From contig CAZQXN010000006.1 of NCBI GenBank assembly GCA_964597545.1, positions 13,695 to 77,694 of the forward strand: 64,000 nt of DNA, written 5' to 3'. Numbering within the stretch: the first letter of the stretch is position 1; each line of letters starts with the position of its first letter. Below, piece by piece: positions 9,768 to 58,438 of this stretch. Under the pieces are notes generated by a model that saw only the letters and a program-made list of their open reading frames with translations, searched no databases and was not told where the DNA came from. A program made the position numbers and the translations under genes. This DNA is from an uncultured Planctomycetia bacterium. GTDB lineage: Bacteria; Omnitrophota; Gorgyraeia; 1-14-0-20-64-10.

Positions 9768-10171
9768 GGGGGCGACTGGTTTCGACTGAAGTGACTGGGT
9801 CGAACGTCGCGTGCCGAGGTGGTCCGGAGGCCTCGTAAAAAACCGGACAAAATGATACGTGCCAAAAATATGGTCAAGGGGATCGCCCCGGTTGTGCCGA
9901 TGAGGCCTGCCGTGGTCCCCATGGCACTGGCTGCGTAAAAAACGCAACCCGTCCTCCAGTCAACGCCTGCTAGATTGGATGGACGTCGCCAGCAGGCTGG
10001 CTTAAGTCCAGTACCTCTGGGGGCTTGGGCGAGGAAACCAACCAGGGGGTAGTCGATGCCTTGATCCTGTCCGTGGGAGCGGGCGTCGGCGAAAACCAAA
10101 TCACGGACTACGCACGTAGTGACTCGATTTTCAGCTGCTTCGGCACGAGAGTTCGAATCTCTCCGCCTCCA
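9768..10171 (+). ncRNA. ssrA: tmRNA (SsrA)
   Basis: 5' GGGGGCGACUGGUUUCGAC... and GCCUCGUAAAAAACCGGACAAAAU resemble the E. coli tmRNA 5' region. Internal tag ORF ends ...MALAA-TAA. 3' tRNA-like T-arm GAGAGTTCGAATCTCTC plus acceptor CGCCTCCA pairing with the 5' end. Confidence 0.8.
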
Positions 10172-10229
10172 TTTCTTTTCCAAGAGTTGTTTCCTGTTTG
10201 GTCATCGTGAATACAGCTGGAGGTCAACC

Positions 10230-13404: not shown

Positions 13405-14250
13405 ATGAGCGAAACTGCACGCGTGATCGAGGTCTTCCCCTCCATTCAAGGGGAGGGGATCTACGCGGGCAAGCGCCACCTCTTTGTCCGTTTTGGGGAT
13501 TGCAACCTCAATTGCTGTTACTGCGACACCGATTTCAAGGGTCCATCTGTCGCGGTTGATGCTGAAAAGCTTTTGGAGATGGTGCACCGCCACCTGCAAA
13601 GCAACGGTCCGTTCCACGCGGTCAGCCTCACCGGAGGGGAGCCGCTCATCTGGTGGAGATTCCTGCAGGGGTGGCTTCCGAAACTTAAAGCCATTCATCC
13701 CACAACGTATTTGGAAACCAACGGCACCCTGCCGGATGCATTTCAGGGGGTGCTCGCCTGGATAGATATCATTGCCATGGATCTGAAGCTCCCTTCCTCT
13801 ACGGGGGAGAGGCCTTTTTGGACAGAGCATGAGTGTTTCCTGCGAGCAGCCCACTCGGCAAGCAGGTGCCAGGTAGCTCGTAACTCCATAGGAGACAATA
13901 GGTTGCAAGCTGAATCGGTACCTGGTACCGTTTTTGTGAAGCTTACCGTGACTGCCGATACCCGCGATGAGGATCTGAGGCGTGCGTGCGATCTGGTGGC
14001 TGCGGTGGATGCGCGCATCCCGGTGGTGCTGCAGCCGGTCACCCCACCACCCGTCTTTGACCCGAAGGGTCGTTTCTCGAAGAGAAACCCGCCTTTGGCG
14101 GGCAAGCCGGGTGGTGGGGTCACCCCTTGGAGGGCGGTGAGCGGGGTTCCAAGCGATGATCAGATCAGCCGATGGCAGCATCAAGCTGAGGAAAGAGTTG
14201 CTGGGGTGCAGGTGATTCCTCAGCTTCAACGAGCACTGGGGGTGCCATGA
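13405..14250 (+). CDS. queE: 7-carboxy-7-deazaguanine synthase QueE (radical SAM), carrying an in-frame about 26-aa insertion
   Basis: [42 protein letters not shown] (Cx3Cx2C-type QueE) ... ends [11 protein letters not shown] as QueE proteins do. Start taken at the internal Met. Confidence 0.8.
13860..13938. repeat. Intragenic copy of the GGTACC-W-GGTACC palindromic element inside queE
   Basis: GGTGCCAGGTAGC (13865-13877) ... AATCGGTACCTGGTACC (13917-13929) then GTTTTTGTG. Same unit as the post-giant-gene repeats. Confidence 0.5.
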
Positions 14251-19677: not shown

Positions 19678-19751
19678 CCTTTTCCTAATAAGAAATGCGT
19701 GATTTCTGCCCAGATAGGCCATAAATATGGTATATTTACATTGTAAATACC

Positions 19752-20039
19752 ATGCGTGAGATCAAGTTCATTTGGGATGAAAGCAAGAACCGACTCAACC
19801 AGAGAAAGCACAAAGTCTCTTTTGAAGAAGCGAAGACTGTCTTTTACGATGAGAGCGCGGTTGAGTTTCCCGACCCAGATCACTCGGAACGGGAAGATAG
19901 GTTTCTGATGCTTGGAATCAGCTATCGATTGCGGGTGTTGATCGTATGCCATTGCTTTAGAGAGCGAAATTCGACAATCAGGATTATTTCAGCCCGGAAA
20001 GCGACCAAGAAGGAAATCAAACGTTATGAAGAGAGGTGA
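19752..20039 (+). CDS. brnT: BrnT-family ribonuclease toxin (type II TA)
   Basis: IKFIWDESKNRLNQRKHKVSFEEAKTVFYDE...IRIISARKATKKEIKRYEE matches BrnT/DUF497. Confidence 0.75.
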   Translation: MREIKFIWDESKNRLNQRKHKVSFEEAKTVFYDESAVEFPDPDHSEREDRFLMLGISYRLRVLIVCHCFRERNSTIRIISARKATKKEIKRYEER

Positions 20040-20042
20040 ACC

Positions 20043-20255
20043 ATGAGAGCTGAATATGATTTGACTAAGCTGAAAGGTCGGCGCAACCCGTACGCCAAGG
20101 CATTGAAGAGGCAGGTGACGATCCGTCTCGGTACGGACGTGATTGCTTATTTCAAGACGTTGGCAAATCAGACCGGCATACCCTATCAGAGCTTGATTAA
20201 CCTCTATTTGCGGGACTGCGCGGAGCGTCATCGCAAATTAGCTTGGGCCGCCTAA
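20043..20255 (+). CDS. brnA: BrnA-family antitoxin
   Basis: YDLTKLKGRRNPYAKALKRQVTIRLGTDVIAYFKTLANQTGIPYQSLINLYLRDCA is typical BrnA, starting 4 nt after brnT. Confidence 0.7.
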   Translation: MRAEYDLTKLKGRRNPYAKALKRQVTIRLGTDVIAYFKTLANQTGIPYQSLINLYLRDCAERHRKLAWAA

Positions 20256-20852: not shown

Positions 20853-20988
20853 AATGCTCGTGCCATGGTTTTGTTGCTCTCAAACAGGTTCTAATGTCAG
20901 CCAGCCACCCCACCTTTTTCTCCTAAGGTCCGATAGAGGGACACAAAACGCCGGGTCGTTTGTTGAACCGGGATTTTTAAATTAACGC

Positions 20989-21017
20989 TTGCACACTATA
21001 TGATAATAGCGTATACT
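20989..21017 (+). promoter_or_regulatory. sigma70-like promoter for higBA (TTGCAC-17-TATACT)
   Basis: TTGCAC at 20989-20994, 17-nt spacer, TATACT at 21012-21017. Lies 10 nt upstream of the higB ATG. Confidence 0.45.
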
Positions 21018-21027
21018 TGGGCTTATC

Positions 21028-21318
21028 ATGATAGCGAGTTTCGGGGATGAATCGACAGAAGATATTTTTAACGGCGCAAATACCAAAGCGGCCCGACGAT
21101 TCCCCATCCAGATTTGGAAAGCAGCATCACGGAAGCTGGATATGCTCAATGCCGCTCATGAGCTGCGGGATTTGAGGGTGTCGCCGGGTAACCGGCTGGA
21201 ATCTTTGCGCGGGACCTTAGCCGGAAAACACAGCATTCGGGTTAATGATCAGTTTCGAATAGTGTTTCGCTGGAAAGATGGAAACGCTCATGAAGTGCGA
21301 ATTATCGATTACCATTAG
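21028..21318 (+). CDS. higB: HigB toxin (RelE/ParE superfamily, 'killer protein')
   Basis: MIASFGDESTEDIF.....RLESLRG..AGKHSIRVNDQFRIVFRWKDGNAHEVRIIDYH matches the HigB pattern. Confidence 0.75.
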   Translation: MIASFGDESTEDIFNGANTKAARRFPIQIWKAASRKLDMLNAAHELRDLRVSPGNRLESLRGTLAGKHSIRVNDQFRIVFRWKDGNAHEVRIIDYH

Positions 21319-21332
21319 TTGAGAGGTGAAGC

Positions 21333-21605
21333 ATGATTCCAAAACATCGCAAACCAAGTCACCCCGGGGAAATTCTTCTTGAGGAATTTCTGGTGCCAAT
21401 GGGATTGAGCCAGGTGGAGCTGGCGCGCCGGATGAAAGTGCCAATACAGCGGGTCAACACCCTTGTCAACGGCAAGCGGGACATCTCGGCGGAGACCGCC
21501 ATTCTGTTGAGCCGGGTTCTGAACACCAGCCCCGAATTTTGGATGAATCTCCAAGATGCGCGTGATCTCTTTGAGGCCAGGGAACATCTGGCCCGCGCCG
21601 CTTAG
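21333..21605 (+). CDS. higA: HigA antitoxin (XRE-family HTH)
   Basis: HPGEILLEEFLVPMGLSQVELARRMKVPIQRVNTLVNGKRDISAETAILLSRVL is an HigA HTH. Confidence 0.75.
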   Translation: MIPKHRKPSHPGEILLEEFLVPMGLSQVELARRMKVPIQRVNTLVNGKRDISAETAILLSRVLNTSPEFWMNLQDARDLFEAREHLARAA

Positions 21606-21666: not shown

Positions 21667-22575
21667 ATGCCCATGAACAGAGAAGGCCACACACGCCGGA
21701 TCCAAAAAGTCCTCTGGAGAGTCCTGGCGCTCAACGCGCTGGTCGCGGCAGCCAAGATTTTCTACGGCCTCTTCAGCCGCTCGGCCAGCATGACGGCGGA
21801 CGGCTTCCATTCTTTATCCGACGGAGCCTCGAACATCATCGGCCTCGTCGGCATCCGTCTGAGCGCGCAGCCGCAGGATACGGATCATCCGTACGGCCAC
21901 AAGAAGTTCGAGACGCTCTTCGCCATGGGGATCGCCGCCATGCTCTTTTTGGTGGCGTTCGGCCTTGTCCAGAAAGGAATCAGCCGCATCATAGAGCCGG
22001 TCATCCCGCGGGTGGATTTTGTCAGCTTCGCGGTGATGCTGATCACCTTGGCGGTCAACGTCTCGGTGATGCTGTATGAGTACCGGCGCGGCAAAGCACT
22101 GCAGAGCGACATCCTGGTCGCCGATTCCCTGCATACGCGCGCCGACATCTTCACCTCCTGTTCGGTCATTGCCGCTCTGATCGGCGTCAAGGCCGGCGTG
22201 CCGGTGATTGACCCCATCATCACGCTGGTCATCGCCGCCTTCATTGTCCATTCCGCCGTCGGGATCGTCCGGCAGGAGGCCGGGATTCTGTGCGACGCGG
22301 TCGCCATAGGAGACACCGGAAAGGTCCGGGGTGCCGCGCTCCGGATCGAGGGGGTCAAGGGGTGCCACAAGATCCGCAGCCGGGGCCGGCCCGACGACGT
22401 GCATCTGGATCTGCATGTGCAGGTGGACGGGAAGATGACGATAGAGGAGTCACACCGGATCAGCCACCGCATCCAGGAGGCGATCGGCGAGGCATTTCCC
22501 CAGGTAACCGATGTGATTGTCCATATGGAGCCGGCCGGGCAATCCAGCGGTTTGAATCCACCCCGCTTGTGTTAG
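21667..22575 (+). CDS. Cation diffusion facilitator family metal efflux transporter
   Basis: HSLSDGASNIIGLVG...DHPYGHKKFE...C-terminal cytoplasmic domain. Six predicted TMs. Confidence 0.8.
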   Translation: MPMNREGHTRRIQKVLWRVLALNALVAAAKIFYGLFSRSASMTADGFHSLSDGASNIIGLVGIRLSAQPQDTDHPYGHKKFETLFAMGIAAMLFLVAFGLVQKGISRIIEPVIPRVDFVSFAVMLITLAVNVSVMLYEYRRGKALQSDILVADSLHTRADIFTSCSVIAALIGVKAGVPVIDPIITLVIAAFIVHSAVGIVRQEAGILCDAVAIGDTGKVRGAALRIEGVKGCHKIRSRGRPDDVHLDLHVQVDGKMTIEESHRISHRIQEAIGEAFPQVTDVIVHMEPAGQSSGLNPPRLC

Positions 22576-22601
22576 TAGGAATTAAAATCTAATAATCTAG
22601 C

Positions 22602-22630
22602 TTGACGCTTAGAGAATAGTTAAGTAAACT
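22602..22630 (+). promoter_or_regulatory. sigma70-like promoter of giant gene A (TTGACG-17-TAAACT)
   Basis: TTGACG 22602-22607, TAAACT 22625-22630. Lies in an AT-rich stretch. A homologous arrangement is found upstream of the other two giant genes. Confidence 0.4.
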
Positions 22631-22720
22631 TTAAATATAACCCAATATTTACGACCCCGCGAGATTTGACCTCGGAACCATGTTCGCCGCCATGCGGCAC
22701 TCCATAGGGGGGGAGTACCC

Positions 22721-25700
22721 ATGAAGAAAGTGAATGTCTCTTTTTTGAAACGAACCCAGCCTCTTTTTTTAACGATCCTCTTGGCCAGCTTTGTTCTGAC
22801 CCAGCCTGCTTTTGCCCTGCGCGCCAGTGGTGTAGATGCTAGGGGGCAAAAAACGGTACGCTCAGGCTTGGAAGAAACGCTTAAACGGGCCGGAGCGGCG
22901 GCCCGGGCCGGGAATCCGGATGCAGCGCTGGAAGCCGGCGCCTCTGCTGTTGGGCAATTGGCCAGCGCAGCCGGACTCCTTCCGGTAGCCCCGAAGCCCC
23001 CTGGTTTCGCCACCGGCCTGGAGGAAGACGCAGTGGCTGATTTGGACCAAGCCATCTCATATCTTCTGCGCGATCCCGAGGACCCGGACTTGGTGAATGT
23101 GAATGATTTGCTGGCCGAGAAAAATCCAACTGATCTGGCGAAAGGGTTCAGGCTGGCCGCGGCTATTCTTGGCAAAATGACGAGACTCCTCGATGAAGAA
23201 ACGATGGAAGTGCTGGAGGCTTTGATTGCCCGAGGCAAGGAGGAGACCGGCCCGGTATTGAGTGCTGCTTCTGTTGCGGGCGAGGCACTTGAGAGCTTGC
23301 CTGGCAGGGCCGAAGAAGCCAGCTTTGATGCACTCGCTGAGAGATATAAAGCCAGCGGTTTAGAGGAACGGCGGGGCATGACTCGCCGGGAAATGCTTAT
23401 TGGCCTGGCGGCAGCTGGAGCCGGGTTGGCGGTGGGTGTGCCCACGGGAATGTTTCTTCCGAGGTCAGACTCGCCATCGGCCGCTTCTTCGGCTGCACCG
23501 GACGCGGCACAGACAACCCCTGCCCTCACTTGGACCGGTGCGCACTACGAAAAGGGCAGATGGTCTTCTATCGCCTTAACCGGGTACCCTCAGGGTGCGG
23601 TTGCGAGTCTCTGGCGTGCGGAAACAGCACCGCAAGGTCAGCCTCGAAGTTGGGTATTGTTGGGCAGTTCTGATCCCGAGACACAACCCCGATTTGGAGA
23701 GAACGGAAGAGTGGAGCTGAGAGCGGTCCCAGAAGAAATCCCTCTGGAGCCGAACCAGACTCGGATCATAGTCGTCCACGATGTTCAAGCGTGGAACCGG
23801 TTGATGGAGGCATCTGGACCGGAGAACAGGTTAGACGAAACAAGGTTGAACCAGCTCTTGGGGGATCAGGAATTTGTTCAAACAACAGGGTTGAATGTGA
23901 CTGAAATTGCACCCCCAGACGTCAAGTATCTTTCCGCCTTCTCGGTGGAAGCCAAGGTAGACGAACTCCACTATGGACCTTTTGGGGTCGTCCTGCGGTT
24001 GGTCGAGATCCAAGGCGGCTCAGCGGTAGGCGTTTGGCGCAAGCAGAATCTTCCGCACGGACCGGAAGTGTGGAGTTACGACCCGTCGGAAGGATATGAG
24101 GTGGTGAAAGATGTTTGGGCTGGCCGGGGTTCGATACGGCTGGGTGCCAATTGGACAAAGCCCCCACTGCATGCTGGAGAATTTCGTATTGTCATTATGC
24201 CGAATCTCGCCACCTGGGACCACTGGGTGAGATCGGCAAACGAGATGGATGACTTTTCTAACAAGCTTTGGATGTCCACTGAAGAGATGGATCGGTTGGC
24301 TTCCGCTAAGCTTTTTGGGCCGACGACAGCGTTTTTCGTGGTTGAGGTGGGAGACCGGGTGCTTCAGGTTGTCTCGGCGCCACCCGCCGGCCTGGAGGAG
24401 CAGGGAGAAAGCCTGACCTGGAGGGCTTGGATGGCCACGGTGGGTGCTTGGGGGCCTACCAGGAGTTTCCTGAGTCGCGAGGTTATGCCGGCCGATCGAG
24501 CTGCCTTGCGTCGCCAAATCAACGGTCTGCTCAACCGCATGGTTCGGCAAGGGTACGTGGACAATATTCGTCCCATCCTTAAGCATGGGATTCCGGCAGC
24601 GGTCAAGAGCTTAATGCCGATGCAGTTCACTGGTGGGACAGGTTTTGGCGGCGAGCACTTTTACAGCAGGGAACTGGACTGGAACAAGCTGGATTTCGTC
24701 ATGGATTTCCTCTTTGAACTCGGGATTGAGTACCCGAATTGGAGCGAGCTGACGTCTGCGGAACTGGTACAACTTGTCGAGGAGGCCACTCACCTCTACG
24801 AACAGGCCATGGATTACCAAGTGGAAGTCGTCCTGCCGGCGGAAGGCGTTCGTTCTGATATTGAAGCTGCCGAGCGCGAAAGGATGCAGGCAAGAGCAGA
24901 AGCATTAAAGACAAGAGGGTCAGAGGTATTGGAGCACATGTTGTCGGCTGACGAAATTGATGAGGCGGCGACGATAGCCAATTATGAGGAAAAGGATCCC
25001 AATCTCGAAATAAAAAGGCTGCACCGCCACGAGGCTCCTCTTCGGGAAGATCTGGAGAGGCTAGAGGAGGAACTGCGCCAAATAAGCGAAGAGATGCAAC
25101 AGGGGTGGCGGATCCAGCATGTGCGGATTGTTCCCGCCGCCGGCCTGGAGGAAGTGGAAATAGTCTCCGAGCCGATAAGGCAATTCACAGGCCACGGCCA
25201 ATGGGTGTATGGCGTGGCCTTCTCCCCTGACAGCCGATATCTCGCTTCGGCAAGCGCGGACGAGACGGTTCGCCTTTGGGAGGTCAACAGCGGCAGCGAA
25301 GTCCGGCGATTCAAAGGCCATACCGACAGGGCGTGTCGCGTGGCCTTCTCCCCTGACAGCCGATACCTCGCCTCGGCAGGCGACGACAGGACGGTTCGCC
25401 TCTGGGATGTCGCCACCGGCAGCGAAGTCTGGCGATTCGAAAGCCAAGAACAAGGAATGCATATTCATAACATGGCCTTCTCCCCTGACAGCCGATACCT
25501 CACCTCGACAGGCAGCGGCAAGACGGTTCGCTTCTGGGATGTCGCCACCGGCAGCGAAATCCGGAAATTCGAGATCGGCTGGGTGTATACCATAGCCTTC
25601 TCCCCTGACAGCCGATACCTCGCCTCGGCAGGCGGCAAGACGATTCGCCTCTGGGATGTCGACGCCGGCAGTGAAGTCTGGCAATTCGAAGGCGACGACC

Positions 25701-28700
25701 TAATGATGGTGCGTGCCGTAGCCTTCTCCCCTGACAGCCGATACCTTGCCTCGGCAGGCGGCGACAGGACGGTTCGCCTCTGGGATGTCGCCACCGGCAG
25801 CGAAGTCCGGCAATTCAAAGGCCATACCAACTGGGTGTATACCGTGGCCTTCTCCCCTGACAGCCGATACCTTGCCTCGGCAGGGGAGGACAGGATGGTT
25901 CGCCTCTGGGATGTCGCCACCGGCAGCGAAATCCGGCGATTCGAAAGCCACGGCAAAGCGGTGCGTGACGTGGTCTTCTCCCCTGATAGCCGATACCTTA
26001 CCTCGACAGGTGATGGCAACACGATTCGCCTCTGGGAGAGCGGCCTCACCACTACCGGCCTGGAGGAAGGTAAGTCGCCTCGGCCCACCACAGCGCCCAG
26101 CTTCCTGGCGGCCACATTGGAGGCATCCATGGAGCTGGCAAGCGATGGGCCTGTGGCTGTAGCTGATTTGACTGCGGGAGTCAACCAAAGACAGGCTCGG
26201 CAGCTAAAAGAGTCGACTGTGGCAGACCACCTGCATCTGCTGTGGCTTGGCGGAGCCCTAGACAGAGGAGGAAGCACCAAGCGGGACGCAAGATATCAAT
26301 TGGCACGCCGTCCATCGTCAGCCCGCCTGCAAGCTGTTCAGCGCTATCTTAACGGGGCGGCAGGAAGTGCAGTGCGCTACAGCACGCCAAGCGAGCGCAA
26401 AGCGCTTGTTGCCCAACTGCGGAACATTGTCTATACGACGGACGTATCGCGGGCAGCCAAAGCGTACACAGCTGAAGGCGCTGGCGCTGTTCAGACTGCC
26501 GATGACCTGGAGCAGATTGCAGAGGCACTCGGCCTATCCCTTGTGATGCTCAAGCCCGACGCAATCAAGAGGCGACAGGATCGCGCCATCCTGGATTTGC
26601 TTTGGGATGCCAGCAGAGTGCAGATTGTATACATAGGCCAACAGGTTGCGTTGGACCAGGAGACCCAAATAGAGCCCTTTTATGAAGAGCACAGGGAGAA
26701 AGTCTTCTTTCAGGTCCTTCTCGACTACATCGGCGGCGGGGAGGTCGTTCCCATGCTGGTGAGGTCTACAGCCGCCGACGAATCTCCGATCGACCACATC
26801 GCCCGCATTATCGGGCCCACCAACGGCGGCTTTGACAGAGTGAACCCAGCGTCCAGCACCCCGCAAGGCATACGGGGCGCATTGATGAGCGCTCGGGACA
26901 TCAGCTCTGACCCCAGCAGATTCCCGACAACCAACAGAATTCATCGCTCATCCGGCACTTATGCAGATGTCGTCCAAGAAGCCGGTCTCGCCTTTGGCGG
27001 CACAGAGGCGCTGGCGCAGATCGTAGCTGCCCGTGTCTTAAAGATACAGCCCCCCGAACTCGCCTCCGGCCAGGAGGAGGGGGAGACGATGTTCGACCCT
27101 AGGTGGGCTGGGCTACTGGAGCAGTATCGCCTTGAGAGCGTTGAGGAGTTAAGGAGCAATTTGCTCCGGGCATTTACCGATCCGAGCTTTGCGTGGCTCA
27201 CCCCTAAGATGCTCTGGCAAGCGTGGCTCTATGATGAGGAGCGAGGCTTTGATGAAGCTGGCGAAGCGGTGCACATATGGTCTTATGAGGATATAGATGG
27301 TGCTCTCGAGGGATATGCACTTGGCCAGCGGGTTGAGGTGTATCCGGTCAGCACCAGCGAGGTGCGGATTGATATTTTATCCCCCTCCTCACATCCAGGT
27401 GCGCGACCAGTGGGCACCTCTAGCACTGCTACCGTGGGAGAGATAGGTCCCAAGCTGCATGCAGCATTCACCAACTCCCATCCGCGAAGTGATAGTCGGC
27501 TCACCCCAGGGTCGTTGCAGGGGATCGCATTTTACGATGACACACGCCCTATGCAGTATGGTACTCACTTTGTGGCGGATATAACCGACAGGACTAGCTT
27601 GAGAGATGTTCTTGAACAGTATCAGTCCGATCAGCCCGTTACACTCAGCGTGACGGGTAAGCATAAGCTGGCGCTTACAATCATATCCGCCTCCGGCCAG
27701 GAGGAGGGGAAGATAGAAAGGGAAATAGAGGAGGTGAGGGAAAGGCTTGCCGTTGTTAATCATCAACTTGCGCTGGCGAGATTTGTCAGGGCTGAGACGT
27801 TTATGGATCCAGAGCCTAGGTTGCCAGAAGAATCTGCAGAGTTGGACGAGCAATGGCACGTTTTGGTTGGCGACCTAAAACGTCTTCGGCAGGAGCAGCG
27901 AGCTCAGGAGATGGGACTCACCAGCCGGACCGGCCAGGAGGAGGGGGTTGCCAAACCTTTAAGCGAATTGCGGCCTTCACGCTACCTGAGGGACGATTGC
28001 CTTGTTGATTCGAATGCTGGAACAAAGGTGTTTCTGGTTTCCAAAAATCAGCGCGGGTCAGAAGACGTGAGTTTGATAAACATAGCTACACGGGACCCCC
28101 TGGCGTTGCCGGTCCTGATGCTGAAAAAATATCACGTCCTCCGCAGAAGGGCCTCCGGCCAGGAGGAGGCGGTGCGGCAAGCCGCACATGCGTACCTGGC
28201 TCAACCCGGGGTTTTGGAGCAGCTGGATGCTGCAGGTGGCAGCGTGCTGCTGAATTCAGCGGCTGCGCGGCGGTTGCATCCGGCAGCAATGGCGGCCACC
28301 TTGACGCGGGCAGGTGCACCTGCCGGCGTTGAAGAGCCCCCCGGCTTGGTCCTTTCAGACAGCAATCTCATCCCCCAGCGCAACCCTGCGTTACGGAATC
28401 TAGCTATGGTACCGCTGGGCTCCAGCTGGCAGGATGTCGAAAACGCCATCCAGCAGGCCAGCCCCTTTGACTTAATCTTGGTTGAAAAGGAAGCTGGACT
28501 ATCCCCGGAGGTGGTTGCCGCGGCTTTAAGCCAAGCCTTTGGGCAAGGGCCCTCGGCCCGAGCAGTGCTGGCAGATCCCCAGCAGATCGAACTCATTTCA
28601 GCCCAGGCCCTCTATGAGGTCTGGACCGACCAGAGCTTGCCCAAGGTGGTGGCCCTGGGGATCTTTCTCCAGATTCAGACTAAGGCCGGAGAGACCTTTA

Positions 28701-28720
28701 ATCTCGCCATCTGGATGTAA
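22721..28720 (+). CDS. Giant secreted modular protein A (1999 aa): Sec signal peptide, Ala-rich N-region, coiled coil, about 8 WD40 repeats, C-terminal modules separated by [AS]GQEEG motifs
   Basis: N-terminal signal peptide (LFLTILLASFVLTQPAFA). WD40 repeats (FSPDSRYLASAG.DRTVRLWDVATGSE). Recurrent GLEE/GQEE punctuation at module boundaries. Confidence 0.7.
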   Translation: MKKVNVSFLKRTQPLFLTILLASFVLTQPAFALRASGVDARGQKTVRSGLEETLKRAGAAARAGNPDAALEAGASAVGQLASAAGLLPVAPKPPGFATGLEEDAVADLDQAISYLLRDPEDPDLVNVNDLLAEKNPTDLAKGFRLAAAILGKMTRLLDEETMEVLEALIARGKEETGPVLSAASVAGEALESLPGRAEEASFDALAERYKASGLEERRGMTRREMLIGLAAAGAGLAVGVPTGMFLPRSDSPSAASSAAPDAAQTTPALTWTGAHYEKGRWSSIALTGYPQGAVASLWRAETAPQGQPRSWVLLGSSDPETQPRFGENGRVELRAVPEEIPLEPNQTRIIVVHDVQAWNRLMEASGPENRLDETRLNQLLGDQEFVQTTGLNVTEIAPPDVKYLSAFSVEAKVDELHYGPFGVVLRLVEIQGGSAVGVWRKQNLPHGPEVWSYDPSEGYEVVKDVWAGRGSIRLGANWTKPPLHAGEFRIVIMPNLATWDHWVRSANEMDDFSNKLWMSTEEMDRLASAKLFGPTTAFFVVEVGDRVLQVVSAPPAGLEEQGESLTWRAWMATVGAWGPTRSFLSREVMPADRAALRRQINGLLNRMVRQGYVDNIRPILKHGIPAAVKSLMPMQFTGGTGFGGEHFYSRELDWNKLDFVMDFLFELGIEYPNWSELTSAELVQLVEEATHLYEQAMDYQVEVVLPAEGVRSDIEAAERERMQARAEALKTRGSEVLEHMLSADEIDEAATIANYEEKDPNLEIKRLHRHEAPLREDLERLEEELRQISEEMQQGWRIQHVRIVPAAGLEEVEIVSEPIRQFTGHGQWVYGVAFSPDSRYLASASADETVRLWEVNSGSEVRRFKGHTDRACRVAFSPDSRYLASAGDDRTVRLWDVATGSEVWRFESQEQGMHIHNMAFSPDSRYLTSTGSGKTVRFWDVATGSEIRKFEIGWVYTIAFSPDSRYLASAGGKTIRLWDVDAGSEVWQFEGDDLMMVRAVAFSPDSRYLASAGGDRTVRLWDVATGSEVRQFKGHTNWVYTVAFSPDSRYLASAGEDRMVRLWDVATGSEIRRFESHGKAVRDVVFSPDSRYLTSTGDGNTIRLWESGLTTTGLEEGKSPRPTTAPSFLAATLEASMELASDGPVAVADLTAGVNQRQARQLKESTVADHLHLLWLGGALDRGGSTKRDARYQLARRPSSARLQAVQRYLNGAAGSAVRYSTPSERKALVAQLRNIVYTTDVSRAAKAYTAEGAGAVQTADDLEQIAEALGLSLVMLKPDAIKRRQDRAILDLLWDASRVQIVYIGQQVALDQETQIEPFYEEHREKVFFQVLLDYIGGGEVVPMLVRSTAADESPIDHIARIIGPTNGGFDRVNPASSTPQGIRGALMSARDISSDPSRFPTTNRIHRSSGTYADVVQEAGLAFGGTEALAQIVAARVLKIQPPELASGQEEGETMFDPRWAGLLEQYRLESVEELRSNLLRAFTDPSFAWLTPKMLWQAWLYDEERGFDEAGEAVHIWSYEDIDGALEGYALGQRVEVYPVSTSEVRIDILSPSSHPGARPVGTSSTATVGEIGPKLHAAFTNSHPRSDSRLTPGSLQGIAFYDDTRPMQYGTHFVADITDRTSLRDVLEQYQSDQPVTLSVTGKHKLALTIISASGQEEGKIEREIEEVRERLAVVNHQLALARFVRAETFMDPEPRLPEESAELDEQWHVLVGDLKRLRQEQRAQEMGLTSRTGQEEGVAKPLSELRPSRYLRDDCLVDSNAGTKVFLVSKNQRGSEDVSLINIATRDPLALPVLMLKKYHVLRRRASGQEEAVRQAAHAYLAQPGVLEQLDAAGGSVLLNSAAARRLHPAAMAATLTRAGAPAGVEEPPGLVLSDSNLIPQRNPALRNLAMVPLGSSWQDVENAIQQASPFDLILVEKEAGLSPEVVAAALSQAFGQGPSARAVLADPQQIELISAQALYEVWTDQSLPKVVALGIFLQIQTKAGETFNLAIWM
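25190..26040. repeat. Seven or more tandem near-identical about 126-bp DNA repeats encoding WD40 blades
   Basis: GCCTTCTCCCCTGACAGCCGATACCT(C/T)GCCTCGGCAGG recurs at 25217, 25343, 25474, 25595, 25721, 25847 and 25973 with over 90% identity. Confidence 0.8.
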
Positions 28721-40307: not shown

Positions 40308-40391
40308 GCCGCTAAGTCAGGCGTCATCCTAACCCTCTGGAGGAAAAGGCATTGCCAATTCGTTAGTAGTAATACTATTTAGTTTGACCGC

Positions 40392-40420
40392 TTGTAATTT
40401 TACAAAAAACAAGGTAAACT
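40392..40420 (+). promoter_or_regulatory. sigma70-like promoter of giant gene B (TTGTAA-17-TAAACT)
   Basis: AT-rich. TAAACT 40415-40420 is preceded by G as in gene A. The upstream TTAGTAGTAAT box is shared with A and C. Confidence 0.4.
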
Positions 40421-40448
40421 TATACCCACGACACGGAAAACTCCCCGA

Positions 40449-43400
40449 ATGAAGCACAACATACGCACCCTTCAACCGATAGCCGCACTTCTTGCCTTCA
40501 CGCTGGCCTGTCCGAACTCTGTCTATGCTATGCGACAGGAAGGGCCAGACTCCAAGACGGTTCGATCCGGCCTGGAAGAGGCTCTAAAAGCCGGTCCTGG
40601 CGCCACCCTGGAATACATAGAATACGGCGCCACACGCCTGACGCAAGCCCTCACCCCACCCAGCCCAGCCCCTCTATTCTCCGGCCAGGAGGAGGAGATG
40701 ACGAGCCGAACGGGCATCCACGCCGCTAAGTTCTATTTGTTGCCATTATTAGCGGAAGAGGGTTCAGTTAACACGCTAACCTATCCGGGTGGCACACCCC
40801 TTAATCTTAGACAGCTCCACAGTGATGCTGACACAGCGCTCACTATAGCCTTGATACGTGTCTTTGATGGACTAAGACTTCGTCAGGAAACAGGGGCGGT
40901 CGTAATAAGCATCGATAGAAAGACGAAGGTTGCCCACATAACGCAACTTTCCGCCGGCCAGGAGGAGGTGGAGACTATTTCCGAGCCGCTCAGACAATTC
41001 GCGAGCAACGATGAGGTGCTTGATATAGCCCTCTCCCCCGACGGCCAATTTATCGCTTCTGCAGGCTTGGATGGGACAGTTTGCCTCTGGAATGTCGGCA
41101 GTGGCGAGCCGGCTTGGAAGTACACAGGCCATACCAGCAAGGTGAATGCTGTGGACTTTTCCCCTGACGGTCGATATCTCGCTTCCGCAGGCCCAGACAG
41201 AGTTATCCGCATCCTGGATGCCGAGAATGGACGGGGGGTGCACTGGCTTAGGGGGCATTTCGATGAGGTGCTTGACGTGGACTTCTCCCCAAACAGCCGA
41301 ACCCTTGCCTCAACGAGCATGTTTGGGACGATTTACCTTTGGAGTGTTGAAAGCGGAAAGAAGTTCCGGGAGATTGGGCACCACAACGGTGTAGCGGTGA
41401 ATACCATCGATTTCTCCCCTGACGGGCGACACATTGTCTCAGGTAACATCCATGGAGATGTTGATCTCTGGAGTGTTGCCAGCGGCAGGATAGCTGGACA
41501 ATTCGAAGGGCACCACCTTGATGTACCTGTCGTGCTCTTTTCCTCTGACGGTCGATATCTTGCCACCGGAAGTAGTGACGACAGGACGGTTCGCCTCTGG
41601 GATGCTGAAAGCAGGCAAGAGCTTTGGCAGTCCAAAGCGGGAGAGCTCTTTAACGTAGCATTTTCCCCTGATAACCAACGTCTTGTCTCGACAAGCACCA
41701 ACGGGATGGTTCATCTTTGGGATGTTGCCAGCGGCAAGGAGCTGCGACGGTTTAAGGCGGGTACTCATAACATCTGGATGTTTGATGCGGTCTTCTCCCC
41801 TGACGGCCGGCAGATTATTACAGGGGATTCGGACAGCATGATTCGTGTCTGGCCGAGCGGCATGCACAGTGCCGGCCAGGAGGAATGGGTTGATATTACA
41901 GTTCCCATGTTGCAGCGCTTACATGCCAATAATCTGGTGCGGGTGGATGACCGGACTTTTCGCTTGGCCAGTAAAACTATGGATGGAACCTGGCAAGGCG
42001 CTGATGAAGAGAGCGGAGGCCCTCTGCAGCCCTTAAGCAAGGTAGATCTCCTCTCAGGGCAGGTGCTGCTTGAGGCCGGCCAAGAGGAGGGCAAGGTGGT
42101 TATGCGTACTCTCCGGCGACTTCAGGCTGCCTACGCGAGTCTTGGCAGCGCCACGGACAGCGGATCCCCTCTGCCGGCAGACGCGCAGGAAGCAACAAGG
42201 GCGGCGTACGAGCAGGTCCTGCAAGATGTCTACCGCTTAGCCAGGCCTGGCGTTGACGCGGGAACAATCGATCAGGCGTGGAATGGGTACAAAAGAGTGG
42301 CTGAGACAGTTCGGTCAGACACATTTTCCGGAACGTCTACCGAAGGCCTTGCTCTGTTGACCGGAGAGTTGAAAAACGTTGCCGCATTGCTGCAAGAGTC
42401 CGAAGATACCGCCGGCCAGGAGGAGGGGCAGGGGGATGTGGTGCAGAGTAACCTCTCTGCTCATGAGGCAGGCGAGCTTCTTGCCAAGGCGCTCAGCCCA
42501 ACCCTGTTCCATTTGCTTCGGTTGGGGCGTCAATACCGGGATGTGCAAATGCCTGATAATCAGCCGCTGACGTATACAACCCCAGCTCTCTTTGCGTCCG
42601 CGGTTTTCACAACGCTAGAGAGGATCAAAGCCAACGGCAGATGGACGGTTACCTTCCCAGCCCAAGGCGAGATCGCTGTGGTGACTGCGCATGAGGAGGC
42701 TGTTGGCCAGGAGGAGACGGTCGCGCCCCCTGAGGACTGGGACCGGATAGGAACTATCCGTACCGACTCAGATATTACCAACCTTCTGGCTCAGCGCGGA
42801 TATGGCCTTCTTTCCCCGGACGGAGACCCCTATCAGTATGTATCACATGATAAGCAACAGGTAGACATCGCCCCTTCGCTTTCCGATTCTTCATTAGGAG
42901 ATTCTTTCGGAAAACCCCGAGCTGAGTTTGAAGGGTGGCACGTTTATTCTTCGCTTCTATCAGCGCGGAAAGCTGCACAAAGAATTCGCCACGCCCGCCG
43001 GGAACAATCCTCCGGCCAAGAGGAGGGAACTGTAGCTGAGGCCTTGGTTTCCGAGAGCCGAGATCAGCCTCTTCCTCCGGAGAAAGTCATCGAGGCGATC
43101 TTGGGAGAATTGAATGAGTCGAGAGAAGTTGGGATTCGCTTCATTTGGGATAGCAACTTTGACTTTGGGATTGTTGATGAAACCCAGCCTCTTCATGATT
43201 TTGTGCATCTCAAATTTCTTCCTCGGATAGGACCTTCAGACCCAGTCCCATACGATGAGATCCGTCGGGTTGTTCCGGTCGGTCGATACATTGCGCTTCT
43301 TTCGAAAGCTGCTCAATCTGAGTTGAAAGCTACAGTTGAAGTCGCTAGGTACTCCCCCACAACCGGGCAGCTTGTTCGATTCAGCGGAGATCTTGACCAT

Positions 43401-45326
43401 TTTCACTTCGAGGGCGTCGGAGACACTCTCTTGAGAGTTCAACTTTCGGAGAGTGTCGCTGCAGCCGCAGAAGAAGCGCTTTCAGAGCGTTTTCCAGGAG
43501 ATGCCGTTTATGTTCGATTAAAGGAGGTTAGCCGCCTGGAAGTCCACGGTTTCCTGGAGGAGGACCCTCGCGGGGTGTTGGCACAGCAGTTTGGTCGACC
43601 TCAGTTAGATGCTGCCACTGACGAAGCATGGCGTTTCTTGAATCATCGAGATGATGCAAGCGATGCGCAGCTCAAGAGAGTTACCCTGGATTTTGTGCAC
43701 AGGCTTGAAACACCAGACAACATTGCGTTGTTCCAATTGCCGAGAGCAGATGAAGCAGCCATTCGATATCGTATCCGTAGATTCCAGATAAAATCTCCTT
43801 TTAGCGCAGTTAACCTCGATAAGGTTATCCTAGATGACAAAAGAGCAGTTGTCATTACGCCTGTGTTCAACCTGCCGTCTGCCTCCGGCCAGGAGGAGAG
43901 CCAGCCCGGCGTTGTCTCTGAGGAGTTGATGGGCACCCTCGCACGCGAGGGTTGGAACAAAGTTGCAAAACAGTGGGTAGCCCTCAATCGCGATGACGGC
44001 CTTACTCTCATGGATGCGCTCATTCGCGTTAACCCCGAAGGACAGGTTATCCTTTTAGGAAAGGAATTCTGGCAGCGTAACATCCCAGATACGATTGATG
44101 TCGAACGCGCTAGATCCATTGCGAGCGGATCGATCGGAAGGCAAGCAATCACAAGCGCAGTGGCAGTTGCTCCACAAGGGGTGGTTGTCCTTCAGGTCGA
44201 TCAGATGGGGGCATATGACGGTGTGACATACGAAGCGCTGGTCAGCGAGCGTACCGTCCCCATCACTGCTGAGGTCCGCCGCCTTGCCGGCCTTCCCCCA
44301 GCCGGCCAGGAGGAGGAGGATTTGATCGGGATTATCCGCGATGATCAAGATATCAATGACTTGCTCCAGCGCGGTTTTGGCCTGCTCTCTCCGGAGGGAG
44401 CCCCTTATGAATATTTATCACAGGATATTCGAAGAATAATAATCTTTCCTGTGGTTGGCGGGTCGATAGGAACTCCTTTCGGGAAACCCCGGTCTGAAGT
44501 TATAGGGTGGAGTGTTTATCCTTCGCTCAAAGCAGCGCTTGCAGCTAGTCAAAAAATAGCTCACGCTCGTTGGGGGCAATCTGCCGGCCAGGAGGAGAAT
44601 ATGACGACACGCACGGGCACTGTCGCCACTGTCTCCTATTTACTTGGCTTTGCGCACGATGGTTCTCTTGACACGCTGACTTATCCCGGCGGCAGATCCA
44701 TCAGGCTGGACAGTATCAGCGATGATCCTAATAGAGCGGTTCCCGTAGCTGTGACAAGAGTCTTTAGCGCGCTGGATCTTGATCCGCATAGGGCAATGGT
44801 CGCAATGAACATTGACGAAAGCGCGAAGACGGCTTACATAGTGCCAGAGGGCGGTCAGGAGGAAGCCTCTCTCGCAACTGCATTGGCTCCCTTTGCCAAC
44901 GCCCTAGCGCCAACTCACCCCGGGGTTTTAGTGCTTACTAATTCAGGCCTTGAGGAAAACCCAAGCCTCCTCGGCCTAGCCGCACACCCTGCTTTTGCTC
45001 AACGGATGGCGGTCTTTGCCACCCTCGCTGCCGTACAGCGCCAGCAGCTTCAAGCCGCAGGTGTTCAGGTTCTTGATGAGAACGATTTCTGGGGCCTGGT
45101 GGTAACGCTCCATGGCATGGACGAGGCCGAACGCGTGACTGTTCTTGAACAAGCCGGAACCCTTGCCAATGAACTTAGGAAAGAGCTGCCCCCTTCCGTT
45201 ACGGTTCATTTCCAGCCCATTGGCGCCACAGTCCGCGCCATTCTCTCAGCCTTCCTCCCTGAAGGAGAACTGGATCGGTTTGACGCTGAGGCATTCGGCG
45301 TCCTAGCACAACTGCTCGCTGCGTAA
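40449..45326 (+). CDS. Giant secreted modular protein B (1625 aa): signal peptide, WD40 propeller, duplicated internal modules separated by [AS]GQEE motifs
   Basis: Signal peptide (IAALLAFTLACPNSVYA). WD40 repeats (FSPDGRYLASAG...). Twelve GQEE/GLEE boundaries. Internal paralogous modules (MTSRTG.../MTTRTG...; IGTIRTDSDITNLL.../IGIIRDDQDINDLL...). Confidence 0.7.
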   Translation: MKHNIRTLQPIAALLAFTLACPNSVYAMRQEGPDSKTVRSGLEEALKAGPGATLEYIEYGATRLTQALTPPSPAPLFSGQEEEMTSRTGIHAAKFYLLPLLAEEGSVNTLTYPGGTPLNLRQLHSDADTALTIALIRVFDGLRLRQETGAVVISIDRKTKVAHITQLSAGQEEVETISEPLRQFASNDEVLDIALSPDGQFIASAGLDGTVCLWNVGSGEPAWKYTGHTSKVNAVDFSPDGRYLASAGPDRVIRILDAENGRGVHWLRGHFDEVLDVDFSPNSRTLASTSMFGTIYLWSVESGKKFREIGHHNGVAVNTIDFSPDGRHIVSGNIHGDVDLWSVASGRIAGQFEGHHLDVPVVLFSSDGRYLATGSSDDRTVRLWDAESRQELWQSKAGELFNVAFSPDNQRLVSTSTNGMVHLWDVASGKELRRFKAGTHNIWMFDAVFSPDGRQIITGDSDSMIRVWPSGMHSAGQEEWVDITVPMLQRLHANNLVRVDDRTFRLASKTMDGTWQGADEESGGPLQPLSKVDLLSGQVLLEAGQEEGKVVMRTLRRLQAAYASLGSATDSGSPLPADAQEATRAAYEQVLQDVYRLARPGVDAGTIDQAWNGYKRVAETVRSDTFSGTSTEGLALLTGELKNVAALLQESEDTAGQEEGQGDVVQSNLSAHEAGELLAKALSPTLFHLLRLGRQYRDVQMPDNQPLTYTTPALFASAVFTTLERIKANGRWTVTFPAQGEIAVVTAHEEAVGQEETVAPPEDWDRIGTIRTDSDITNLLAQRGYGLLSPDGDPYQYVSHDKQQVDIAPSLSDSSLGDSFGKPRAEFEGWHVYSSLLSARKAAQRIRHARREQSSGQEEGTVAEALVSESRDQPLPPEKVIEAILGELNESREVGIRFIWDSNFDFGIVDETQPLHDFVHLKFLPRIGPSDPVPYDEIRRVVPVGRYIALLSKAAQSELKATVEVARYSPTTGQLVRFSGDLDHFHFEGVGDTLLRVQLSESVAAAAEEALSERFPGDAVYVRLKEVSRLEVHGFLEEDPRGVLAQQFGRPQLDAATDEAWRFLNHRDDASDAQLKRVTLDFVHRLETPDNIALFQLPRADEAAIRYRIRRFQIKSPFSAVNLDKVILDDKRAVVITPVFNLPSASGQEESQPGVVSEELMGTLAREGWNKVAKQWVALNRDDGLTLMDALIRVNPEGQVILLGKEFWQRNIPDTIDVERARSIASGSIGRQAITSAVAVAPQGVVVLQVDQMGAYDGVTYEALVSERTVPITAEVRRLAGLPPAGQEEEDLIGIIRDDQDINDLLQRGFGLLSPEGAPYEYLSQDIRRIIIFPVVGGSIGTPFGKPRSEVIGWSVYPSLKAALAASQKIAHARWGQSAGQEENMTTRTGTVATVSYLLGFAHDGSLDTLTYPGGRSIRLDSISDDPNRAVPVAVTRVFSALDLDPHRAMVAMNIDESAKTAYIVPEGGQEEASLATALAPFANALAPTHPGVLVLTNSGLEENPSLLGLAAHPAFAQRMAVFATLAAVQRQQLQAAGVQVLDENDFWGLVVTLHGMDEAERVTVLEQAGTLANELRKELPPSVTVHFQPIGATVRAILSAFLPEGELDRFDAEAFGVLAQLLAA

Positions 45327-45933: not shown

Positions 45934-46013
45934 GGGGTTGCCTCTTTCGTTATGTCCGATACTATTTGTATAAGGGATAATATAGCATTATATGCAAACA
46001 GACAACACCAAAC

Positions 46014-46135
46014 CTAACATCGGTATCGGGTACCAAACCTTATACCAAGGGGTCAGACCCTTTCGTACAGCGTGTACGGGGCAGCCGCGTACGAAAAGGT
46101 CAGACCCTAGAAAGCGGTACCTGGTACCAAGGTTT
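46014..46135. repeat. Degenerate and intact copies of the GGTACC-W-GGTACC element plus GGTCAGACCCT direct repeats upstream of the ORF6N gene
   Basis: AAACCTAACATCGGTATCGGGTACC (46011-34) is near-identical to 28739-28762. GGTCAGACCCT at 46051 and 46098 flanks the CTTTCGTAC/GTACGAAAAG inverted repeat. GGTACCTGGTACC at 46116-28. Confidence 0.6.
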
Positions 46136-58304: not shown

Positions 58305-58398
58305 CCCGTTATGAACAAAAGAGTTACGGGCCGATCATCCGACCAACAGGATAGGCGATCTCTCCAGATGTTAGTAATAACAGAATCTAGCATACATC

Positions 58399-58428
58399 TT
58401 GATCTTCCAGTTTCCCACCGGGTATACT
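58399..58428 (+). promoter_or_regulatory. sigma70-like promoter of giant gene C (TTGATC-18-TATACT), nearly leaderless
   Basis: -10 TATACT 58423-58428. First in-frame ATG at 58439, so the leader is about 5-10 nt. The upstream TTAGTAATAAC...AATCTAGC box is shared with A and B. Confidence 0.4.
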
Positions 58429-58438
58429 TTACTTATCA

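Follow-up and report, generated by a model that had tools for sequence, protein, structure and literature searches.

A recurrent promoter layout with a distal 12-bp box ahead of three giant genes of an uncultured bacterium

The vlp, vsp and vsa genes of Mycoplasma carry conserved 5′ ends, comprising promoter and signal peptide, on variable surface genes, and the erp loci of Borrelia burgdorferi were reportedly found by Sung et al. in 2000 to possess an "upstream homology box" and an erp operator. In polymorphic toxins, junction motifs (VENN in CdiA, PxxxxDPxGL in Rhs) mark the exchange of downstream modules. For the erp surface-protein genes, the conserved 5′ flank is a means of coordinate control by common DNA-binding proteins (PMC9112904); at the level of the single promoter, an activator site with an UP element directly downstream has been documented as a class I arrangement (PMC4132738). 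Here, a 64,000-nucleotide (nt) stretch of contig CAZQXN010000006.1 from an uncultured bacterium is analyzed (the window, to which all coordinates without a locus name refer), in which three giant genes, termed A, B and C, are each preceded by the same ordered elements: a distal box, an AT-rich tract and a core promoter. The resemblance does not come about by chance; the layout is a genuine control region specific to this family. Taken as a whole, it is probably best explained by a promoter module particular to the family, of which each giant gene has a copy that drives it. Very likely, this module works as a promoter and includes a distal cis-element under selection, and a class I activator, which would recruit RNA polymerase via its α subunit's C-terminal domain (α-CTD), is the leading candidate for the mechanism, though we would stop just short of calling it probable.

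The upstream regions of the three genes were read directly from the window sequence. The motif GTTAGTA(G/A)(G/T)AA occurs three times in the 64 kb (at 22571, 40362 and 58370), each time on the forward strand, as are all elements and genes described for A, B and C, and directly ahead of a giant gene. In front of A, the distal box GTTAGTAGGAAT (22571-22582) lies at about -66 to -55 from the presumed transcription start site (TSS) and is followed by an AT-rich, UP-like tract (22583-22601) with two AATCTA motifs (22586-22591 and 22594-22599), the -35 hexamer TTGACG (22602-22607), a 17-nt spacer and the -10 region G-TAAACT-TT (22624-22632, hexamer 22625-22630), which would place the TSS at about 22637. 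The resulting leader of ~84 nt contains GGAG at 22712-22715, 5 nt before the ATG. The box of B, GTTAGTAGTAAT (40362-40373, about -65 to -54), precedes an AT-rich tract (40374-40391), of which ACTATTTAG is kept in a close relative and the following TTTGACCGC is not (2/9), the -35 hexamer TTGTAA (40392-40397; TTGTAT in the relative), a 17-nt spacer and the -10 region G-TAAACT-TT (40414-40422; hexamer TATACT in the relative). Here, the TSS would fall at about 40427, giving a leader of 22 nt without a Shine-Dalgarno sequence. TTGACC at 40383 had also been considered as the -35 of B and was ruled out, being unconserved in the relative (2/9). For C, the box GTTAGTAATAAC (58370-58381, about -65 to -54) is followed by AATCTA (58384-58389), the -35 hexamer TTGATC (58399-58404), an 18-nt spacer and the -10 region G-TATACT-TT (58422-58430), so that the TSS is predicted at about 58435 and the leader would measure 4-13 nt, depending on whether 58439, 58442 or 58448 serves as the start codon.

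The distance from box to -10 is thereby nearly constant (53 nt in A, 52 in B and C). When the three upstream regions are aligned with MAFFT and compared from fixed anchors, the boxes alone are invariant and the DNA between them is unrelated. An earlier sequence-only reading of this DNA is confirmed as to the ordered boxes. Its -35-like and -10 elements with their 17-18 nt spacing, and AATCTA in A and C only (twice and once; ATTTAG in B), likewise agree with the sequence, as do the AT-rich islands in GC-rich DNA: the sites have a GC content of 0.28 (A), 0.27 (B) and 0.38 (C), compared with 0.56-0.62 in the 200 nt upstream and 0.571 in the whole window. Two details need correction: the listed coordinates are right for A and C, whereas TTAGTA of B starts at 40363 instead of 40364, and the box given as TTAGTA(G/A)(G/T)AAT holds for A and B, whereas that of C ends in AAC.

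Taken alone and with up to one mismatch, the 11-mer GTTAGTARKAA has three matches in the window against 0.89 expected, and three were reached in 8 of 100 shuffles. The composite pattern GTTAGKARKAA-N17-21-TTG-N18-21-GTAWACTT also has three matches, where 100 shuffles give an expectation of 0.00. Tolerating as many as three mismatches to GTTAGTAGTAAT discloses no further credible site in the window. A box matrix built from four foreign sites alone (see below) ranks A first, B second and C fourth in the window, and the corresponding core matrix ranks C first. The motif is also not a common one, since ~45 kb of the close relative contain no box besides that of the B orthologue and a scan of 596 Gb of genome contigs is at chance level. 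The -10 shape G-TATAnT-T recurs at unrelated window promoters (19729 and 21010), and the other recognized promoters of the window (19729; 20983-21018; that of tRNA-Leu at 7800-7772) lack the box; only the distal box is thus family-specific.

Selection on these elements is visible in the relative, which was reached via the hydrogenase gene that precedes B (loci L001 and L002, with L056 and L059 as extensions) and whose flanking DNA is 83-90% identical to the window. A segment-by-segment comparison of B with its counterpart B′ in L001 yields an alternation of kept and lost sequence: 87% identity in the 3′ coding part of the hydrogenase gene, 53% in the 53-nt spacer after its stop, 21/22 (95%) in the box and AT block CGTTAGTAGTAATACTATTTAG, 2/9 (22%) in the next 9 nt, 27/30 (90%) from -35 to -10 (TTGTAA...GGTAAACTT), 5/14 (36%) in the 14 nt around the presumed start, 24/24 (100%) in the leader and start codon GAAAACTCCCCGAATGAAGCACAA (40436-40459) and 45% in the coding sequence of the head, the N-terminal part of the product. 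With boxes kept at 90-95%, against 22-53% for their neighbors and 45% for the head, the cis-elements are far better conserved than gene B itself, and the promoter elements are under purifying selection. The protein B′ (974 residues, L001 4072-6996, against 40449-45326 in the window) resembles B only in the head (55%) and the last ~220 residues (47%), the middles being unrelated. The identity of GAAAACTCCCCGAATGAAGCACAA, a 13-nt leader plus the first codons of B, despite its diverged surroundings is an observation of its own; it may be a translation-initiation or regulatory element.

Gene C is absent from the relative, in which L056 12160-12336 (corresponding to 58305-63715) holds a different, small gene without a box, preceded by an inverted repeat CTATAGTAGA...TCTACTATAG. 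Homology between window and relative ends at 58331, 39 nt before the C box; with C missing, this indicates that the promoter travels with its gene. For A, the sequence available from the relative begins inside the WD40 repeats, downstream of the promoter. The giant loci are thus strain-variable between genomes with 83-90% identical flanks. One could regard the box as a site of recombination or attachment at the 5′ edge of mobile islands that hold the giant genes: the giants lie between conserved housekeeping operons, C is strain-specific and its left junction is just upstream of the box. Nevertheless, this is the least probable of the alternatives and hardly credible, since homology between B and B′ runs uninterrupted from the hydrogenase gene across the box, no recombinase is found nearby, the 3′ ends carry no copy of the box and instead have unrelated GGTACCWGGTACC palindromes, and recombination does not need a fixed spacing to the -10.

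Recurrence was examined by scanning the composite pattern against the public genome contigs (596 Gb) and metagenomes. The genome scan, in which the source genome is evidently not represented among the species representatives, gave 16 stretches, compared with ~20 estimated arithmetically for a random pattern of equal information content, and they are mostly located in AT-rich genomes or inside genes; two in one Gemmatimonadetes metagenome-assembled genome were rejected as duplicates of a coding segment on the opposite strand. In one of the 16 (L016, labeled "Planctomycetia" by the depositor), an AT island follows a gene end in GC-rich DNA and a giant open reading frame (ORF) with a head-like start lies further downstream, which makes it a probable family member. 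Of 36 stretches from the metagenome scan, five stand out (L020, L045, L040, L042 and L054): in each, an AT-rich site lies in a GC-rich contig and a gene starts 7-30 nt after the -10. The product begins with a signal peptide, A(L/M)R and SGLEE or AGMEE in all four cases that can be read. The five products have no Pfam match except for a Rossmann domain in L054, and the neighbors of these genes are unrelated housekeeping genes without a shared regulator. In L054 (2-1075, reverse strand), residues 290-355 form a Rossmann domain of the mannitol-dehydrogenase type, a cassette that follows the head, which implies that cassettes can be ordinary enzyme domains.

If the TSS is set 7 nt behind the -10, the box of each of the nine distinct sites, in the window and outside it, extends from -65/-67 to -55/-57. 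GTTAG is invariant among them, the -10 is TAAACT or TATACT throughout, and the distance between box and -10 is 52-54 nt, compared with a spread of 49-56 for chance matches. The -35 hexamers of the sites in other genomes are TTGTAT, TTGAAA, TTGAAA, TTGATT and TTGCTT, with spacers of 17-18 in every case, and the predicted leaders are very short in L042 (~1 nt) and in L020 and L045 (~5 nt). The σ70-type core with a common upstream box before all three giants, as first perceived, is therefore non-random and kept both in the orthologous locus and in other genomes.

L020 2718-2943 is 98% identical to L045 (reverse strand) over a stretch that begins upstream of the box and continues as far as the first SGLEE word (~45 codons), after which the two genes encode unrelated proteins of >650 residues. 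Such a pair might suggest that a functionless box is simply inherited, as part of a promoter that rides in a head cassette spread among the family genes by copying or conversion, and the position of the C island's left junction, no more than 39 nt upstream of its box, would fit as well. Inheritance as the sole explanation is nonetheless very improbable: A, B and C have diverged to randomness except for their boxes, the contrast between boxes and adjacent non-coding and head-coding DNA in B and B′ points to selection on the boxes, and heads exist without a box.

The core itself looks like an ordinary housekeeping-type promoter, as its generic shape and a consensus scan indicate. The -35 hexamers of the window resemble TTGACA, the -10 hexamers of the nine sites resemble TATAAT, all having A as the second and T as the sixth base, and the spacer is 17 ± 1 bp in all sites; in the σ70 consensus scan, A (TTGACG/TAAACT) and C (TTGATC/TATACT) pass at 9/12. 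The proposed module would thus consist of (i) a σ70-type core with a -35 TTGAnn, a 17-18 bp spacer and a -10 TA(A/T)ACT between G (-13) and TT (-6/-5), (ii) an UP-like tract, rich in AT, that spans about -54 to -38 and (iii) the 12-bp distal box, consensus GTTAGTAGTAAT, centered near -60/-61 and constant in its phase relative to the -10. A dedicated protein that binds DNA sequence-specifically would sit on the box and act through the polymerase α subunits in class I geometry, and all box-carrying genes would be switched together. Transcripts would start ~7 nt after the -10, leaderless or with very short leaders in C, L020 and L042 and with longer ones such as that of A.

The E. coli CRP-type class I σ70 promoters with an UP element are the closest parallel in layout, sharing the order of upstream site, AT-rich tract, -35, 17-18 bp spacer and -10, a site centered near -61 and a phase to the core fixed within ±1 bp (PMC4132738). 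They differ in having a 22-bp palindrome where the box measures 12 bp with almost no dyad symmetry, and for the giants the start is predicted and not mapped and the activator hypothetical. In the nine sites, the box lies where a class I site, centered near -61.5 (or one or two helical turns further upstream) on a fixed face of the helix, is expected, a position that depends on the presumed TSS. The box resembles, to our knowledge, no nameable activator site.

Two other uses of the same DNA have to be weighed against a class I activator. Box and AT tract together could be a lineage-specific strong UP element read by the α-CTDs, which would make the promoters strong and constitutive with no dedicated factor. 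The putative UP tract of the window sites is A/T-rich, with no clear match to the A-tract/T-tract consensus. In favor of an UP element, the AT tract occupies about -54 to -38 and the box adjoins it at the place of a distal UP subsite (PMC4132738), and the core comes close to the consensus. An UP element is, however, a degenerate run of A and T, whereas GTTAG, with its two G, is invariant in 9/9 sites, and other recognized promoters of the window do without a box. In addition, the UP consensus of Estrem and Gourse has a usual upstream limit of -59, past which the G-containing box extends to -66. The UP element as the whole explanation is thus quite improbable. Alternatively, the box could be a negative site that binds a repressor or nucleates a nucleoid-associated or xenogeneic silencer, which would coat the AT-rich island until derepression of these costly, variable genes. 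The boxes do lie in the most AT-rich islands of a window of 57% GC, the genes behave like accessory DNA that varies between strains (the relative lacks C and has the middle of B replaced), and the conserved upstream region of Borrelia erp is a repressor/antirepressor operator 5′ of the promoter (PMC9112904). The sequence-only reading had likewise proposed the box as a candidate operator. Yet it ends ~19 nt upstream of the -35 and overlaps neither -35, -10 nor start, so that class I activator or UP-type geometry fits better. Its fixed phase to the -10 suits face-of-helix polymerase contacts, whereas nucleation of a silencer needs none, and a G-containing 12-mer identical across genomes is more specific than typical silencer preferences. 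A negative site is therefore unlikely, although it is the strongest of the competing explanations.

Nor does an explanation at the RNA level compete: no terminator is present between the upstream genes and the boxes of A, B and C, Rfam at its gathering threshold finds only transfer-messenger RNA (tmRNA) and tRNAs in the window and nothing at E<=1 in 22500-22800, and the fold of the A leader is not significant (z = -0.8). As to the regulator, no conserved regulator gene adjoins the family members. The ORF6N protein, which had been put forward as the binding protein, is encoded beside B and B′ alone and is missing from the vicinity of A, C and the foreign members, and nothing specific speaks for it. 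The AT-rich island upstream of the ORF6N gene (45937-46026) contains the fourth-best, yet weak, match to the box matrix, TTGTATAAGGGATAATATAGCATTATAT, with a score of 10.9-15.8 compared with 14-40 for true sites; the island is probably merely the ORF6N promoter.

Several points weigh against a dedicated activator module as the preferred reading. Because the pattern that retrieved the foreign sites came from the window itself, their match at the pattern positions is circular, and independent evidence is limited to their context, their heads and the positions outside the pattern. The core of B, at 8/12, fails the strict σ70 consensus scan, and σ70-like matches are not generally enriched in this genome (6 against 5.4 expected). 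The dyad symmetry of the box is weak, in contrast to most dimeric activator sites: the consensus has only TTA-N4-TAA, not the symmetry expected for a dimeric helix-turn-helix protein, and the C box alone reads GTTA-N4-TAAC. TSS, σ factor, binding protein and an activating rather than repressing role are deduced from layout, for an organism that is uncultured. Finally, protein searches with a head profile gave P0004, P0005, P0021 and P0022, and the head genes found by protein similarity in this way (P0005/L055, P0021/L063-65 and P0022/L062) have no box; two of these three carry GG-TAAATT or TGG-TATAAT -10 regions. The box is hence not needed for expression of every family member. As a box implies a head in every case seen, and a head does not imply a box, the box would be an added input in some genomes or subfamilies. 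A further hit of the head profile, P0020, was discarded as a false positive, a Bacteroidetes type IX secretion system (T9SS) protein with SALEEL repeats.

The genes behind the promoters are unusual in themselves. Gene A (22721-28720) encodes 1999 residues, with a head that extends to the first G(L/Q)EE word at 22865-22876; B (40449-45326) encodes 1625, with its first word at 40569-40580; and C (58439-63715) encodes 1758 residues counted from a GTG, with its first word at 58598-58609, while its 1755-residue database entry implies a start at 58448. C had been called nearly leaderless, which is plausible and matched by other members; the 10-nt gap behind the -10, however, leads to the GTG at 58439 and not to an ATG, the ATGs at 58442 and 58448 being 13 and 19 nt away. 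Like C, A and B sit between conserved housekeeping operons. According to the alignment, all three products share a head of ~60 residues, composed of a signal peptide, A(L/M)R, ~10-15 residues and SGLEE. Beyond it, little is common: A and B each carry a WD40 propeller, C has no Pfam match, the similarity of A and B is confined to the first ~100 residues and one WD40 cassette, and no similarity of C to A or B is detectable apart from the head and short G(L/Q)EE words. They are therefore not the three ordinary paralogues for which they had been taken. Among 5.8 billion proteins, C has no homologue other than itself and is thus an orphan, and the first 800 residues of A have none in the protein search.

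The G(L/Q)EE words suggest how such proteins are assembled. The three giants contain 32 copies (9-13 per gene), compared with about 0.4 expected from composition: in A at 22865, 23015, 23357, 24389, 25142, 26057, 27068, 27695, 27932 and 28157, in B at 13 sites within 40569-44946 and in C at nine sites within 58598-63344. They are encoded by a near-fixed ~20-nt word, (G/T)CC GGC C(A/T)G GAG GA(G/A), which contains GGAGG, the Shine-Dalgarno core, and CCWGG. Codon choice is far more uniform at the words than in the rest of the giants, GGC being used in 29/32 words (41% background in the same genes, p = 7e-9) and the first GAG in 30/32 (59% background, p = 1e-5). Homology blocks begin and end at the words, which thus behave as cassette junctions. 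The WD40 cassette shared by A (25137-26068, between the words at 25142 and 26057) and B (40951-41885, between those at 40956 and 41874) ends -5 and +11 nt from the words in both genes. Homology between B and B′ breaks off at 40673, with a word at 40683, and starts again at 44853, the position of another word, and the blocks shared by A and its counterpart in the relative end at 27079, 27689, 27931/27949 and 28157/28168, compared with words at 27068, 27695, 27932 and 28157. A and C, and likewise B and C, share only the words themselves and the 3′ palindromes.

The giants accordingly look like in-frame cassette arrays, with the promoter belonging to the 5′ head cassette. The head cassette, comprising promoter, signal peptide, A(L/M)R and the first SGLEE word, would be attached to otherwise unrelated, cassette-built secreted proteins. 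It is conceivable, and put forward tentatively, that the promoter is the fixed "expression head" of an undescribed kind of gene, which would encode giant secreted proteins of exchangeable in-frame cassettes joined at the ~20-nt word. The box-bearing head would supply transcription, a leaderless or short-leader start and export, whereas cassettes would be swapped, lost and duplicated between paralogues and strains exactly at the words; the junction word might also be a processing, pausing or internal-initiation signal.

Compared with such a head cassette, Borrelia erp has a conserved 5′ flank and leader-peptide codons common to otherwise unrelated, recombining genes, an analogy of organization only, with no sequence relationship expected; the erp genes are small lipoprotein genes on prophage plasmids with a ~145-bp repressor/antirepressor operator region, whereas the genes described here are chromosomal, span 5-6 kb and conserve a 12-bp box in class I position (PMC9112904). 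The likeness to Mycoplasma vlp/vsp/vsa lies in a conserved 5′ module joined to divergent bodies and in strain-to-strain variation; in contrast to these loci, all three copies in the window have a complete promoter without a homopolymer tract or invertible element, so that phase variation is not indicated. The words recall polymorphic-toxin junctions as short conserved peptide-coding words where downstream modules exchange by recombination. They differ in number (9-13 per gene instead of one) and in being constrained also at the nucleotide level, and no toxin/immunity pair is seen. A literature search on SGLEE/GLEE motifs and conserved giant-gene promoters turned up no account of box, head or word, and the promoter belongs to none of the named families with which it was compared.

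Some further features of the window may be mentioned. Repetitive extragenic palindrome (REP)-like palindromes of the form (A)TCGGTACC(A/T)GGTACC(AA) stand in 2-3 copies immediately 3′ of every giant gene (28725, 28750 and 28774 for A; 45349, 45375 and 45401 for B; 63732 and 63758 for C) and at two intergenic or 3′ sites elsewhere (46022 and 46116; 13865 and 13917), with 12 matches against 0.75 expected in the window. An A-centered copy followed by a T-centered one is predicted to pair into a 13-bp hairpin, and the copy at 13916-13930, followed by a T-run, is flagged as terminator-like. The close relative has none of these palindromes, and the copies behind B match an extra ~58 nt in the window. 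The tmRNA (9768-10174) has an unusually long predicted tag peptide, AKNMVKGIAPVVPMRPAVVPMALAA. Two toxin-antitoxin-like pairs (19679-20255 and 20956-21605), with small ORFs at about 19753-20040/20043-20255 and 21028-21318/21333-21605, each lie behind an AT-rich promoter island of their own, with -10 regions of the G-TATAnT-T type (GGTATATTT at 19729; CTTGCA-N17-TATACT at 20988-21018); judged by eye only, they may be BrnT/BrnA and HigB/HigA pairs.

The promoter finding is solid, and what is more unusual about it is the connection with a mosaic orphan secretome. The cis-element GTTAGTAGTAAT at about -60 provides a bait for finding the regulator, and a scan for the box would allow the regulon of an uncultured lineage to be defined. 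The promoter pattern also finds family members beyond the reach of sequence search, as C has no homologue and relatives were found nonetheless. If the head is indeed a fixed expression head, the distal box would tie a whole shuffling secretome to one regulator. Head module and junction words together suggest that very large secreted proteins are built and diversified in modular fashion, which, if confirmed, would be relevant to giant genes, surface variation and gene mosaicism.

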